The notes beneath the pieces are model-generated. The model saw nothing but the letters and a program-made list of their open reading frames with translations, did no database searches and was not told the origin of the DNA. Below are positions 1,598 through 6,310 of a stretch of 40,177 bases of DNA, piece after piece (position 1 is the stretch's first letter; the number at the start of each line of letters is the position of its first letter). The position numbers and the translations under genes are program-made. The DNA is from Actinomycetota bacterium (GTDB taxonomy: Bacteria; Actinomycetota; Acidimicrobiia; IMCC26256; VFJJ01), in the NCBI GenBank assembly GCA_009886115.1, contig VFJJ01000197.1, forward strand, positions 1 to 40,177, written 5' to 3'.

Positions 1598-2350
1598 TCA
1601 GATCATGGGCCAGGGGTAGGGGTAGTCGGTGCGGGGCTCGGGGAGGACGGCCTCGCTGGTGAGCGCGTCGACGCGCATCCAGAGCGCCTCGAGCTCGTAG
1701 GGCGAGAGCAGATTCGCCAGGCGGCTGCGGTGCGGCTTGAGCAGCACCGAGCTCAGGACCCGGAGCTCGTCGAGGGTGGCGTCGTCGAGGGGATCGCCGA
1801 TGAAGTCCCAGATGACCGTCCGGAGCTTGTGGTCGTCGTGGAACGTGAGGCCGTGGTCGATGCCGACGATCGTCCCGTCGACGGTGGAACGCAGCACGTG
1901 CCCGGCCTTGCGGTCGGCGTTGTTCACCACCACGTCGAACGCAGCGAAGGCGCGGAACCGGTCGGGATGCTCATCGCGGAGGGTGAGGTAGTGGTCGTTG
2001 GGATCGTGGGGAACGAACTCCTGCACCATGCCCTCGCCGTGCGGCCCGTCCCGCAGCACCGTGCGGGGCACCACGTCCCAGCCCAGCAGCTCGGAGACCT
2101 CGAACGCCGCCACTTCACGCTGGCAGAGCGTCCCGGCCGTGAAGTCCCAGAGGGGCCGCTCGCCACGCCGGGGCTTGTAGATCACGAGCATCTCGGCGTC
2201 GTCGAGCACCGCCGTGCCGAGGAAGGTGGCGTTCGACGAGTACCGCATCCGCCCGAGGAGCTGTAGCTCACCACACGCGAGCACCCCGGCCCGTTGCTCG
2301 GGCGGCAGCTGCGGGGGAACGGGAAATCCGGCGAGGGTGGCGTCGGCCAT
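1598..2350 (-). CDS. SCO1664 family protein (PI3/4-kinase-like fold)
   Basis: Motifs YSSNATF, IYKPRRGERPLWDF, REVAAF, NNADRKAGH, IDHGLTFH, KLRTVIW and a PYPWP C-terminus. Start moved to ATG 2350, just after the DUF3090 stop. Confidence 0.9.
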   Translation of the reverse strand: MADATLAGFPVPPQLPPEQRAGVLACGELQLLGRMRYSSNATFLGTAVLDDAEMLVIYKPRRGERPLWDFTAGTLCQREVAAFEVSELLGWDVVPRTVLRDGPHGEGMVQEFVPHDPNDHYLTLRDEHPDRFRAFAAFDVVVNNADRKAGHVLRSTVDGTIVGIDHGLTFHDDHKLRTVIWDFIGDPLDDATLDELRVLSSVLLKPHRSRLANLLSPYELEALWMRVDALTSEAVLPEPRTDYPYPWPMI

Positions 2351-2358
2351 CGGGCAGC

Positions 2359-3006
2359 TCAGTTCATCCCTGGGCAGCCCTGCCAGTTCTGCTGCGGACA
2401 GCCCTGGCGCTCGGGTTCCATCGGGAGGCGGCACAGCTCGCAGATCGGCCGTCCTGCGGCCACCACCCGAGCGGCCTGCTGGGCCAGCGCCCGCATCTGG
2501 GCCCGCGTCGCGAGCACCCGCACCAACCGCCCCGTCGGCTCGGCCCCGAACGAGGGATGGGCGCCCGAGACGCGTGGCCGACCCTGCTCGTCCACGTCGG
2601 CCTCGCTGGTCCCCGTGGGATCGTCGGCATCGTCGGGGTCTTCGTCGTCGGTCTCCGCCGCGGGTGCAGGATCGTTGAACTCCTGCAGCTCGAGCACGAT
2701 GAGACCACGTCCCACGTCGAAGCCCAACCGGATCTGCCGGGCCCGGAAGTTGGGTTCGGTGGGTTCCTGGAGGGCGGCCGCGGCGGCAGGGACATCGGAG
2801 CCCGGATCGTTGGGGAGACGACGATCGAGCTGCTCGAGCAGGGCCAATGCGTGTCGGGCCAGCGCCGCGACCTGCTGCTTCTCGACCAGGACGGTGATCT
2901 GGAGCGATCCGGCCTCGGCCTGGATCAAGAAGGCGCGCTGGCCCGGCTCGCCCACGGCGCCGGCCCCGAGCCGATCGACCGGGTCGAGCTCGATGGCCTC
3001 GGTCAT
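2359..3006 (-). CDS. DUF3090 family protein
   Basis: GAVGEPGQRAFLIQA, EKQQVAAL and the C-terminal VVAAGRPICELC...P...GCP motif; conserved position between the phosphomutase and SCO1664 genes. Confidence 0.9.
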   Translation of the reverse strand: MTEAIELDPVDRLGAGAVGEPGQRAFLIQAEAGSLQITVLVEKQQVAALARHALALLEQLDRRLPNDPGSDVPAAAAALQEPTEPNFRARQIRLGFDVGRGLIVLELQEFNDPAPAAETDDEDPDDADDPTGTSEADVDEQGRPRVSGAHPSFGAEPTGRLVRVLATRAQMRALAQQAARVVAAGRPICELCRLPMEPERQGCPQQNWQGCPGMN

Positions 3007-3749
3007 CCTGGGCCGTCGGAGGGTCCCGCCGCGGCTTCCGGCGGTTCCGCCGCCGTTCCCGGCGGCTCGGTCGGGGCCTCTGGGGGCGGTGGAAGCATCT
3101 CGGCGAACCCGCCGGTGTCGTTGAACTTCACGACAGCGGCACCGTGGGGACCGATCGTCAGCCCGGTCACCGACGCCGGCGAGATCACCAGCCGTTGGAA
3201 CTGGTCGAGGTGCGTCCCGGCGAAATGGGCGACGGCCGCCTTGATCACGTCGGCGTGCGAGACGATGACGACGAGCTCACCGGCATGGCGGCCCGCCACC
3301 TCCTCGACGGCGGCAACGGCGCGGTTTTGCATCTCGCGGATCGACTCACCCTCGGGGAACCGGGCCAGCGACGGGGTGCGCTGCACCTGCTTCCAGATCT
3401 CGGTGGAGACGAGGTCCTTGATCTGCTGACCGGTCCAGGTGCCGTACTCGGCCTCGATCATGCCGTCGAGTCGTACCACGTCGAGCCCGTGGTGTGATGC
3501 GATGGCCGCCGCCGTCTGCATGGTCCGCTCGATGGGGCTGGCGTAGATCGCCGAGACGGGCAGGTCCTTCAGGCGCTCGCCCACGTCGGCTGCCTGGGCC
3601 TGCCCTTCTTCGGAGAGATCGATGCCGGGCAGTCGGCCCGAGAGGATCGGACCCGTCTGGTGGGTGACCGCGTGCCGCACCAGCAGCACCCGGGTCGGCG
3701 GCGGGGTCCGAGGGGCGGCGGCGGGGTCCGCCTGCGAGGGTTCGGGCAT
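3003..3749 (-). CDS. Histidine phosphatase / MSMEG_4193-family putative phosphomutase
   Basis: LLVRHA, LSGRLPGIDL, SPIERTMQTA, EAEYGTWTG, FPEGES, SHADVIK. The start ATG 3749 is preceded by TACCCT at 6 nt (leaderless). Confidence 0.9.
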   Translation of the reverse strand: MPEPSQADPAAAPRTPPPTRVLLVRHAVTHQTGPILSGRLPGIDLSEEGQAQAADVGERLKDLPVSAIYASPIERTMQTAAAIASHHGLDVVRLDGMIEAEYGTWTGQQIKDLVSTEIWKQVQRTPSLARFPEGESIREMQNRAVAAVEEVAGRHAGELVVIVSHADVIKAAVAHFAGTHLDQFQRLVISPASVTGLTIGPHGAAVVKFNDTGGFAEMLPPPPEAPTEPPGTAAEPPEAAAGPSDGPG

Positions 3750-3830
3750 CGCGCGAGGGTACGCGGTCTCGTCGCACGTGTGCGGAGGAAAGCTCGTGTC
3801 ACGAGCATTTCTGCCGGAAGCCAGCGGAGG

Positions 3831-3865
3831 ATCGGAACAACACCGAGAATCGGAACAACACCGAG
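3831..3865. repeat. Tandem duplication of ATCGGAACAACACCGAG (18-bp period)
   Basis: Exact copies at 3831-3847 and 3849-3865. Each unit is a mini-hairpin TCGG-N7-CCGA. Confidence 0.9.
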
Positions 3866-3869
3866 CACG

Positions 3870-4097
3870 GCCGGTGTGGCGCGGTCCCCGTCCCGCACCA
3901 GATCGCGAGCGACCCGGGGGACGGGGACCCCGCAGGCTGCCTCCCCGCAGCGACCCCGCGACGGGACCGCATGAGCGGGGCCCGTCGTGACCAAGGTGGG
4001 ACGGGCTCGCTACTGGCTCCCCGCCGGCCAAGCGACCGAGTACGGCCGGCGGATCATCGCTTCCCCGAGGCCCTGCGCAGGCAGGGAGCCTCGATGC
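3870..4097 (-). ncRNA. Candidate structured RNA of unknown family
   Basis: Five consecutive stems (4066-4093, 4021-4052, 3980-4006, 3936-3951, 3883-3929), a kink-turn-like motif, G-U pairs that work only on the minus strand, and a CATACT -10-like box at 4107-4102. Both flanking genes have their own leaderless -10 boxes. Confidence 0.5.
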
Positions 4098-4157
4098 CTG
4101 CAGTATGGCGCATCGTGACCCCGGGGCCAATGAGACGAGCGACCTATGCTCGCTTTC

Positions 4158-4601
4158 ATGACGGATGCCCAGCCTGTCCGGTTGACCGCCGGTCTCCCCC
4201 AGACCGTGATCCCGCCCGAGCCCGCCGCCGTCCTCGACGCCCTCGCCGCAGCGGTGCGCGAGCCAGAGCCCGCGGCCCGCAAGGCGGCGGTGGCGCTGGT
4301 TGCGGGCGGCCGTCCCCGATTCCTCGCCGCCTGGGCCACGCTGGCCGAGCTGGCCGACGATCCCGTGGAGTCCTACGCCTACGCGCGGGTGGGGTATCAC
4401 CGGGGCCTCGACCAGCTGCGCGCCGCAGGGTGGCGCGGATCGGGCTACTGCCGGTGGACGCACGAGTCGAACCGGGGCTTCCTCCGTTCGCTCGAGGCGC
4501 TCCGAGCGGCGGCCGAGCGCATCGGCGAGGCCGACGAGGCCGCCCGCTGTGCCGAGTTCCTCCTCCAGCTCGACCCCGAATGGACCCGCCGGTCGGTGTG
4601 A
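4158..4601 (+). CDS. DUF3151 family protein
   Basis: AYARVGYHRGLDQLRAAGWRGSG...WTHESNRGFLR...IGEADEAARCAEFLLQLDP. The -10 TATGCT (4145-4150) sits 7 nt before ATG 4158. Confidence 0.9.
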   Translation: MTDAQPVRLTAGLPQTVIPPEPAAVLDALAAAVREPEPAARKAAVALVAGGRPRFLAAWATLAELADDPVESYAYARVGYHRGLDQLRAAGWRGSGYCRWTHESNRGFLRSLEALRAAAERIGEADEAARCAEFLLQLDPEWTRRSV

Positions 4602-4651
4602 TCCACCGCTCGCCGATTCCTCCTCGATTCTCCTCGAGTGCCCTCTCGAGC

Positions 4652-6310
4652 TCAGGTGCCGCCGGCCGGGCCGACGAGCTCGGGGACGATCTCGCTGGCG
4701 GCATGACGGGCCCGCAGCACCTTCTTGTCGAACTTGCCGACGGAGGTCTTGGGCACCTCGGCGATGAACGCCCACCGCTCGGGCAGCCACCACCGGGCCA
4801 CCTGGGGCGCCAGGAACGCCGACAGCGCTGCTGCGGTGGCCGCACCGGCGGTGACCCCCTCGCGCAGCACGACACAGGCCATCGGGCGCTCGTCCCACCG
4901 TTCGTCGGGCACCCCGATCACCGAGGCCTCGACCACGTCGGGATGGGCCATGATCAGGTTCTCGAGCTCGACGGTCGAGATCCACTCGCCGCCGGACTTC
5001 ACGACGTCCTTGGCCCGGTCGGTGATCTGCACGAAGCCATGGTCGTCGACGTTGGCGATGTCGCCCGTGCGCAGCCACCCGTCGTGGAACTTCCCGGGGT
5101 CGGGGTCGAGGTGGTACGACGCCGTCACCCACGGGCCTCGTACCTCGATCTCGCCGACGCTCTCACCGTCCCACGGCAGCTCGTTGCCGTCGTCGTCGCA
5201 GATCCGAAGCTCGACGCCGGGGATGACGCGACCCGTGCGCACCCGCCAGGCCATCTGCGACTCGGCGTCGGTCGCGGCATCCTTCGGGGGATGGCCCATG
5301 GCGGCGAGCGGGCTGGTCTCGGTCATGCCCCAGCCCTGGATCATCCTCACGCCGAAGCGTTGCTCGAGCTTCTCCATGAGCGAACGGGGGACGGCCGACC
5401 CGCCGCACATGACCATTCGAAGTGACGAGAGGTCGATCTCGTTGCTCTCGCCGAAGCGCACGATGTCGGCCCAGATCGTGGGGACAGCGCCCGAGAACGT
5501 GGGGCGCTCGGCCGCGATGAGGCGAGTGAGCGGCTCGGCCTGGAGGTACTGCTGGGGCATGAGCAGGTCGGCACCGGCCATGAACGCCGCGTAGGGCATC
5601 CCCCAGGCGTTGGCGTGGAACATCGGCACGATGGTCAACAGCGTGTCGGTCTCGCAGACCCCCAGCACCGCTGCCGAGGTGATCGCCAGCGAGTGGAGCC
5701 AGGCCGAGCGATGGCTGTAGGCCACACCCTTGGGGTTGCCGGTGGTGCCGCTCGTGTAGCACATGGCGCAGGCCGAGCGTTCGTCGATGTCGGGCCACGG
5801 GTAGCTGGGCGGGGCCGCTTCGAGGAGCGCCTCGTAGTCGTGCACCTCGTAGCCCGGGCCGCCGTCGAGCACGGCTCGGTCGCCGGGGCCGGTGACGATG
5901 ATGTGCTCGACGGTCGTGAGCTCGTCTTTCACCCGGGCGAGCAGAGGCAGGATCGACCCGTTGGCGATGACGACGCGGTCGTGCGCGTGGTTGGCCACGT
6001 AGGCGAGTTGCTCGGGGAACAGCCTGATGTTGAGCGTGTGCAGCACAGCGCCCATCGAGGGGACCGCCAGGTAGGCCTCGACGTGCTCCTGGTTGTTCCA
6101 CATGAACGTGCCGACCCGGTCGCCGGGGTTCATCCCCAGTGTCGCCAGCGCCCCGGCCAGCCGCTCGGCCCGATCGCCGACCTGAGCGAAGCTCGCCCGC
6201 CGGCAGTGGTCGCCCTCGAAGGTGATCACCTCGCTGGTCGCATGCACCCGACGGCCGTGGCGGAGGATCATCTGCACCGAGAGGGGGAAGTCCTGCATCG
6301 TGCTCAACAT
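4652..6310 (-). CDS. Medium/long-chain fatty acid--CoA ligase (AMP-binding family)
   Basis: YTSGTTGNPKG P-loop, PMFHANAWG, GWGMTE, GWLRTGD, DRAKDVVKSGGEWIS, PKTSVGKFDKK; RBS AGGAGG before ATG 6310. Confidence 0.95.
   Translation of the reverse strand: MLSTMQDFPLSVQMILRHGRRVHATSEVITFEGDHCRRASFAQVGDRAERLAGALATLGMNPGDRVGTFMWNNQEHVEAYLAVPSMGAVLHTLNIRLFPEQLAYVANHAHDRVVIANGSILPLLARVKDELTTVEHIIVTGPGDRAVLDGGPGYEVHDYEALLEAAPPSYPWPDIDERSACAMCYTSGTTGNPKGVAYSHRSAWLHSLAITSAAVLGVCETDTLLTIVPMFHANAWGMPYAAFMAGADLLMPQQYLQAEPLTRLIAAERPTFSGAVPTIWADIVRFGESNEIDLSSLRMVMCGGSAVPRSLMEKLEQRFGVRMIQGWGMTETSPLAAMGHPPKDAATDAESQMAWRVRTGRVIPGVELRICDDDGNELPWDGESVGEIEVRGPWVTASYHLDPDPGKFHDGWLRTGDIANVDDHGFVQITDRAKDVVKSGGEWISTVELENLIMAHPDVVEASVIGVPDERWDERPMACVVLREGVTAGAATAAALSAFLAPQVARWWLPERWAFIAEVPKTSVGKFDKKVLRARHAASEIVPELVGPAGGT

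Follow-up and report, generated by a model that had tools for sequence, protein, structure and literature searches.

Organization of the locus

The window, that is, the whole stretch of 40,177 nucleotides of Actinomycetota DNA analyzed here, carries on its minus strand an operon of three genes, which encode a histidine phosphatase of the MSMEG_4193 family (named 'phosphomutase'), a DUF3090 protein and an SCO1664-family protein. A DUF3151 gene lies divergently on the plus strand. The region between the two divergent genes holds promoter-like boxes, a hairpin, a riboswitch aptamer and a stretch of competing pairings, all read from the minus strand (Table 1).

Table 1. Features of the locus (positions are those of the window).
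Feature	Position	Strand	Basis or remark
SCO1664-family protein	1598..2434	-	TIGR03843 274.3 bits; start codon uncertain
DUF3090 protein	2359..3006	-	TIGR03847 135.2 bits; PF11290 1.4e-37
MSMEG_4193-family histidine phosphatase ('phosphomutase')	3003..3749	-	TIGR03848 222.3 bits (cut-off 203.85); His_Phos_1 3.9e-49
TACCCT, predicted -10 box of the ancestral leaderless promoter	3756..3761	-	6 nt before ATG 3749
Variable spacer with 18-nt tandem repeat, 2.2 copies	3827..3865	-	repeat search
Hairpin D:E, candidate terminator or 3' end structure	3879..3933	-	inverted repeat; -46.2 kcal/mol
Segment C2 and candidate anti-terminator hairpin C2:D	3922..3958	-	-25.0 kcal/mol; putative role
Hairpin B:C, first element of the platform	3959..3987	-	inverted repeat, folding energy
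c-di-GMP-II-GCG riboswitch aptamer (RF03170): P1, P2, kink-turn, P3, pseudoknot	3990..4071	-	covariance model and covariation
Pseudoknot 3' strand AGCGA-GC-CCG, pocket G4006, C4005, G4002	4002..4011	-	model positions 69, 70, 73
Pseudoknot 5' strand CGGUCGCU in the P3 loop	4031..4038	-	pairs with 4011-4002
Kink-turn, bulged strand GC-GAU-GA-U	4053..4060	-	partner G-GA-GC, 4020-4015; alignment to Rfam consensus
5' hairpin ahead of the aptamer	4066..4093	-	folding, here and in the sister genome
-10-like box CATACT	4102..4107	-	putative; conserved in the sister, between variable flanks
-35-like box TTGGCC	4125..4130	-	putative; 17 nt upstream of CATACT, identical in the sister
DUF3151 gene, divergent	4146..4601	+	PF11349 2.1e-37

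The phosphatase is present in 40 of the 41 genomes of the order. The family's Mycobacterium tuberculosis homologue Rv2135c is reported to be an acid phosphatase, not a mutase (PMC3866925). The SCO1664-family protein shows a weak similarity to PI3_PI4_kinase, at 25.0 bits, below the 27.1 cut-off. According to a review, SCO1664 is invariably linked to the mycothiol gene mshC (PMC4255298); positions 1-1600 of the window gave no NCBIfam match for mshC.

At 23 of 30 loci of the order, the phosphomutase start is preceded at 6-8 nt by a TANNNT box, as against 0.3% at random positions, and this comparison backs the original prediction that both neighboring genes have leaderless -10 boxes of their own. 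No Shine-Dalgarno-like sequence was seen before ATG 3749. The DUF3151 gene likely starts at ATG 4158 rather than at 4146, several relatives aligning from residue 5, and the box TATGCT (4145-4150) stands 7 nt before this ATG, as expected for a leaderless mRNA. On the side of the RNA, the TTGGCC box has 8 of 12 consensus matches, which is under the threshold of the promoter scan, and the scan called no promoter.

Of 28 loci from relatives, 22 have DUF3151 divergent beside the phosphatase, the two genes being separated by an estimated 4-207 nt; this gap comes to 397 nt in the window and, in the single sister species, to 365 nt. Within it, the aptamer ends 240 nt before ATG 3749, on the same strand as the operon. 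A hidden gene in these 240 nt was considered and rejected, as the 141-aa open reading frame at 3569-3994 does not survive in the sister genome, whose insertions and deletions there are not multiples of three. A further observation on open frames is that one frame of the minus strand stays open for 709 codons over 3003-5132, running through the phosphomutase, the riboswitch leader and the antisense of DUF3151. This long frame is an artefact of GC-rich DNA and could mislead gene callers.

Identity and fold of the aptamer

The minus strand from 4071 to 3990 matches the Rfam family RF03170 over the full length of the model (positions 1-85 of 85) at 63.3 bits, with an E value of 2e-9 for the whole window, where the gathering score is 47.9 bits. 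On the same bases RF03169 scores 55.5 bits, below RF03170, which is the best of clan CL00127, and a scan of 3700-4250 with all Rfam models at E values up to 1 gave nothing besides RF03170. We regard its membership in RF03170 as nearly certain, which makes the element a GCG-variant riboswitch with the c-di-GMP-II fold. The original prediction had presented the RNA as unassigned and had itself named a strong match in an Rfam scan as the outcome that would remove its novelty; that scan finds just such a match, to a family already catalogued. Hence, the class of RNA is not new. What is unusual is its location, before an actinobacterial operon that is conserved and is already served by a promoter.

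The core of what had been read from the letters, a structured minus-strand RNA with a kink-turn and competing pairings, is nevertheless real, as the Rfam match, covariation and folding all indicate. For the covariation check that had been proposed, 30 aptamers of the c-di-GMP-II fold, taken from 41 genomes of the same order, were aligned, and the fold does covary. With the pseudoknot included, 91.1% of the cells hold standard pairs, and 18 of the 25 pairs change on both sides. None of 500 column shuffles reached these pairing and covariation values, and in a control where the partners were slid by 1-3 columns only 33-45% of cells were paired. P2 and P3 are paired in 95.6% and 96.3% of cells, respectively, with compensatory changes. 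P1 is weak across the alignment, where the inner four pairs hold and the outer three are paired in about half of the cells or fewer; in the window it consists of three G-C pairs followed by a bulge.

The second hairpin of the original description (4052-4021), closed by a kink-turn pattern, corresponds to P3 (4052-4020), and its closure to P2 plus the kink-turn of the family. It contains a perfect 9-nt inverted repeat (4021-4029 with 4044-4052), and all 30 sequences share, without change, the G-A/A-G core of the kink-turn between P2 and P3 (the GA and GAG columns). Absent from that description was the pseudoknot, in which CGGUCGCU of the P3 loop (4038-4031) pairs with AGCGA..CCG (4011-4002) while G4006 and C4005 are bulged. 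In this helix 99.5% of cells are paired over seven pairs, with G-C to A-U swaps in 8 of 30 sequences; in the window, one further compensated change is seen at the next pair, where C-G is swapped for U-A. What had been taken as a separate segment A (4010-4000) in fact provides the 3' strand both to the pseudoknot and to P1, and so belongs to the aptamer's 3' half.

Ahead of the aptamer, the first hairpin (4093-4066) folds as described, at -18.8 kcal/mol in the window, and its counterpart in the sister genome at -19.4 kcal/mol despite 64.5% identity. The whole 357-nt leader folds with z = -3.3, and one of 100 shuffles folds as well.

The three letters of the family's name are taken here to mean model positions 69, 70 and 73, from the model consensus and because the spacing fits the contacts in 3Q3Z, the solved c-di-GMP-II riboswitch, where A69, A70 and G73 contact the ligand (PMC13715770). 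Window and sister species alike have G, C and G at these positions. The remaining 28 aligned relatives carry AAG (11), GAG (9), ACG (7) or ACC (1). As a side note, the best-scoring Rfam sub-family of the clan does not track the pocket, since several AAG sequences (loci L002, L010, L012 and others) score best on RF03169. A full-text search turned up no ligand reported for either RF03170 or RF03169, the family-defining paper (PMC5358364) lying outside that search. Our guess is that the ligand is c-di-GMP or a related dinucleotide.

A putative expression platform

The 115 nt that follow the aptamer (3989-3875), here called the platform, are home to the mutually exclusive pairings. All of those originally proposed, A:B, B:C, C:E and D:E, were found. 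A:B is a perfect 7-mer, GCCCGUC with GACGGGC; B:C joins 3959-3968 to 3978-3987 in an inverted repeat of -19.8 kcal/mol; C:E is an inverted repeat of 3887-3895 with 3957-3965; and the D:E arms, 3879-3894 and 3918-3933, are 16 nt long and 94% complementary. The loop of D:E had been credited with an inner stem that uses G-U pairs. Two such pairs are indeed there in the window, but the sister genome loses one pair of the stem. A candidate role for this loop as a decoy of a pseudoknot strand (GGUCGCU) was rejected, as the sister genome reads GGCCGCU.

One segment had been overlooked. C2 (3958-3947), which lies between C and D, can pair with both neighbors (C:C2, -12.3 kcal/mol), and with it the platform is predicted to comprise six consecutive segments, each able to pair with either neighbor, in the series A:B, B:C, C:C2, C2:D and D:E. 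C2 can also capture the aptamer strand 4013-4002 in a duplex of -26.6 kcal/mol, which is part of the unconstrained minimum free energy (MFE) structure and which 11 of 1000 dinucleotide shuffles of the platform equal. In models of the growing transcript, the MFE structure switches between this anti-aptamer helix and its alternatives.

When the aptamer is held closed, the arrangement with D:E reaches -100.9 kcal/mol, as against -90.5 kcal/mol for that with the C2:D anti-terminator. D:E is better by some 10 kcal/mol and is present at equilibrium whatever the state, so that any switching would depend on kinetics. These folding models are fragile, in that the MFE predictions for the sister differ after only four substitutions in the platform. 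A scan for intrinsic terminators gave no sites, and D:E is followed by GCGCCACACC, with no U tract. Its role as a terminator is therefore a putative one.

Conservation and distribution

Compared with the one sister species, the aptamer is 93.9% and the platform (3989-3875) 96.6% identical, the platform thus being the best conserved stretch. The corresponding values are 84% for the phosphomutase coding sequence, 77.8% for its third codon positions and 52% for the spacer. The conservation ends just behind D:E. Of the four differences in the platform, three lie in loops or bulges, either in B:C or in the anti-aptamer helix, and the two that concern B:C are placed one in the loop and one in a bulge; on the other hand, one change weakens the outer stem of the anti-terminator and another costs the inner D:E stem a pair. 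We take these patterns of identity to suggest that the aptamer and the platform are under selection for function. The carriers of the platform are two near-identical genomes, and the covariation evidence covers the aptamer only. Four DNA runs yielded only a variant like that of the sister genome and a repeat-number variant, with no new covariation. The 18-nt repeat of the spacer has one more unit in one metagenome contig and is absent from the sister genome. A reading of the pyrimidine-rich spacer as a Rho site was dropped, the spacer of the sister being G-rich.

In a DNA search of 41 genomes of the order, the platform was found in the window's genome and the sister only, two other matches being short and weak. 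A search anchored on the protein covered 80 loci from genomes and 72 from metagenomes, of which a single one exceeded 54% identity. With our covariance model (R1), an aptamer upstream of the phosphatase homologue was found at one of the 80 genome loci, that of the sister, two further weak matches both lying inside coding sequence, and at none of the 72 metagenome loci below an E value of 0.05. From this distribution, the module of about 300 nt (promoter-like boxes, 5' hairpin, aptamer and platform) appears to be a genus-specific insertion between divergent genes that were ancestrally leaderless.

The other 28 aptamers examined in the sample of the order precede other genes, namely those for glycosyltransferases, GH114 hydrolases, Ig-like or SpaA-type surface proteins, a GGDEF protein, MoaA and unknowns. 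The Pfam-supported ones stand within about 70 nt of the start, with the exception of one, which lies about 390 nt before the GGDEF gene. Separately, in two genera that belong to one family, radical SAM genes of the MoaA type are preceded, at a distance of 45-70 nt, by c-di-GMP-II-fold aptamers with ACG and ACC pockets (L015:1501-1584 and L025:1501-1582, in the order relatives G028 and G009). This is an unexpected link of the c-di-GMP-II fold to molybdenum cofactor synthesis.

A pattern scan for the GCG pocket returned at least 122 stretches and 80 loci, among which 13 model matches in 10 loci are real; this is a sample, not a census. Among the matches listed, these GCG sites lie 17-60 nt before genes for DUF11, DUF5658, GSDH-like and unknown proteins, and their hosts are Chloroflexia, Frankiaceae, Egibacteraceae and other metagenome-assembled genomes (MAGs). 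Five GCG aptamers (L032, L033, L050, L051 and L101), from MAGs of Frankiaceae, Actinomycetota and Mycobacteriales, have a P3 loop that is enlarged by an additional, inserted hairpin of about 30 nt. The first four are arrayed along one contig before successive genes for DUF11 surface proteins, and the gene behind the fifth has no Pfam match.

The window's genome itself has 20 GGDEF matches and one DAC domain, and gave no match for the SMODS domain. The aptamer described here is the single RF03170 or clan aptamer found in it, where the best 150 of several thousand first-look candidates were scored per model; likewise, a loose pattern scan of the genome gave 88 matches, of which one has the compact architecture, and this is the same aptamer. 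A search of the genome for c-di-GMP-I riboswitches gave no match, and its control gave none either.

A model of read-through control and its alternatives

The original prediction had left two options, a stand-alone noncoding RNA and a riboswitch feeding the phosphomutase-DUF3090-SCO1664 operon. The second proves the better of the two; the RF03170 match supports the identity as a riboswitch, and its coupling to the operon is putative. Our preferred reading is cis-acting, ligand-gated control of read-through into the operon, to which we would give a probability a little below one half. In the model, the RNA would be laid out as TTGGCC-N17-CATACT, the 5' hairpin, the aptamer (4071-3990) and the expression platform (3989-3875). 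With ligand bound, the pseudoknot and P1 would hold segment A, hence B would pair with C; C2 would then be free for D, which would delay the D:E hairpin, and the polymerase would read through the variable spacer into the operon. With no ligand, the 3' strand of the aptamer or C would take C2, D:E would form at once, and the transcript would end near 3878. The riboswitch would then be a second, signal-dependent input besides the ancestral leaderless promoter, and not the sole control. The direction of the switch, in which ligand raises read-through, is a more doubtful part of the model than the control itself.

Several observations bear on this choice. The spacer varies in length, so structural coupling to the start codon is unlikely, which leaves termination or read-through. 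Read-through at D:E is the likeliest output because conservation stops behind D:E, the length of the spacer varies and there is no ribosome-binding site. The same-strand orientation and the 20 GGDEF domains of the genome also count for a riboswitch linked to the operon. Much also weighs against read-through: the advantage of D:E even with the aptamer held closed, the missing U tract and the scans that called neither terminator nor promoter, the fragility of the folding models, the two changes in the sister that weaken the anti-terminator and the inner D:E stem, the weak P1, a platform carried by two genomes only, the operon's own promoter, the want of a ribosome-binding site before the first gene of a read-through mRNA, and a context that is atypical both of the aptamers of the order and, among the matches listed, of the GCG sites.

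Some of the same facts would also suit an RNA of about 215 nt (from about 4095 to 3878) that stands alone and acts as a ligand sponge or in trans, with D:E as a constitutive terminator or 3' stabilizer. D:E is present in every equilibrium state modeled, conservation against the sister ends directly behind it, and the operon keeps a conserved leaderless promoter with no ribosome-binding site before its ATG. If the 3' end were constitutive, however, the elaborate alternative pairings would have no obvious use; moreover, D:E is followed by no U tract and no target is known. Trans-acting riboswitch RNAs are in any case rare, Listeria SreA being an example, and we hold this reading to be unlikely. 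It is a good deal less probable that read-through occludes the leaderless TACCCT promoter, so that ligand would lower expression of the operon. Pure conjecture as it is, this idea draws on the two predicted tandem promoters some 345 nt apart on the same strand, and on the AUG, which in a read-through transcript would be internal and would have no Shine-Dalgarno sequence whereas the ancestral mRNA is leaderless; yet many leadered mRNAs of actinobacteria are translated with no Shine-Dalgarno sequence. Equally improbable, in our estimate, is a stranded relic, a module that came with or before a gene since lost and is now idle for its neighbors. Its presence in one genus only and its context, atypical for the family, would fit such a history. 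A relic would hardly be expected to be better conserved than the flanking coding DNA, as the aptamer and the platform are while the adjoining spacer has decayed to 52% identity, nor to score close to the best of the order (63.3 vs 64.0 bits with the same model).

It is scarcely credible that the stems arose by chance in GC-rich DNA, or that the 15-codon upstream open reading frame (uORF) is a peptide-leader attenuator. The matched bases are 72% G+C, and such DNA is prone to form stems; chance is nonetheless hard to reconcile with the E value of the covariance model (2e-9) and with compensatory changes at 18 of 25 pairs. The uORF (4057-4010) that had been pointed out does exist, but it does not hold as a feature of its own, for its ATG is part of the GAUGA of the kink-turn. 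Among the 30 relatives, this position reads ATG in 7, so that 23 lack it, a start-type NTG codon in 19, which might be taken in favor of a uORF, and no start-type codon in 11. The frame lies wholly within the aptamer, where P3 changes pairwise and not codon-wise. From the alignment, then, the uORF is best seen as a by-product of the kink-turn consensus.

Implications

The element is a new member of a known family with an orphan ligand, in an unusual and recently acquired position. On the widest interpretation, one actinobacterial genus has recruited a riboswitch of the cyclic-dinucleotide type to provide a conserved operon with a further input, gated by a signal, by way of either a read-through mRNA or promoter occlusion. 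Taken as a whole we consider this unlikely, but, if true, it would tie the phosphatase-DUF3090-SCO1664 operon to second-messenger signaling and would place in a metabolic gene setting an orphan riboswitch variant that otherwise stands before surface proteins. The recruitment would be recent, a riboswitch module of about 300 nt having been inserted between genes that were leaderless before and have been since, and it raises the question of how a switch borne on a leader could act on a leaderless operon. In addition, the sole clan aptamer found in a genome with 20 GGDEF matches (again among the best 150 candidates scored per model) carries an altered pocket. That an orphan variant whose usual targets are secreted proteins stands before a cytoplasmic operon is a small clue either to its ligand or to the role of the operon.

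Comparison with known riboswitches

One solved relative is the canonical c-di-GMP-II riboswitch (RF01786, 3Q3Z). In this RNA, too, three helices meet at a junction and the fold includes a pseudoknot and a kink-turn, and its pocket is likewise formed from bulged residues of the pseudoknot's 3' strand (PMC13715770; PMC9495366). In 3Q3Z, A69 reads one guanine of c-di-GMP and G73 the other, a third adenine intercalates between the two bases of the ligand, and an A-U pair of P2 stacks on the ligand's backbone (PMC13715770). The window departs from this at three places, in that the guanine-reading A69 is replaced by G, the intercalating A70 by C, and the backbone-stacking A-U pair by A-C (A-G in the sister genome). 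Judged from these replacements, the ligand specificity of the window's aptamer may differ from that of canonical c-di-GMP-II.

In its proposed logic, the window's riboswitch resembles the c-di-GMP-II on-switch of Clostridioides difficile, in which the bound aptamer is reported to favor full-length transcription (PMC9495366). The two differ in that the C. difficile switch has a termination assay behind it, whereas the terminator of the window is predicted, has no U tract and precedes an operon with a second promoter. The GAG variant, RF03169, belongs to the same clan, has the same fold and is common in the order (9 of 30 aptamers); it carries A at position 70, where the window has C. With RF03170 itself, the window's aptamer shares the full-length match, the helices, the kink-turn, the pseudoknot and the G/C/G pocket. 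Its setting is what sets it apart, since the verified GCG sites lie, among the matches listed, 17-60 nt before their genes, whereas the aptamer of the window stands 240 nt before the operon and is followed by a long conserved platform.
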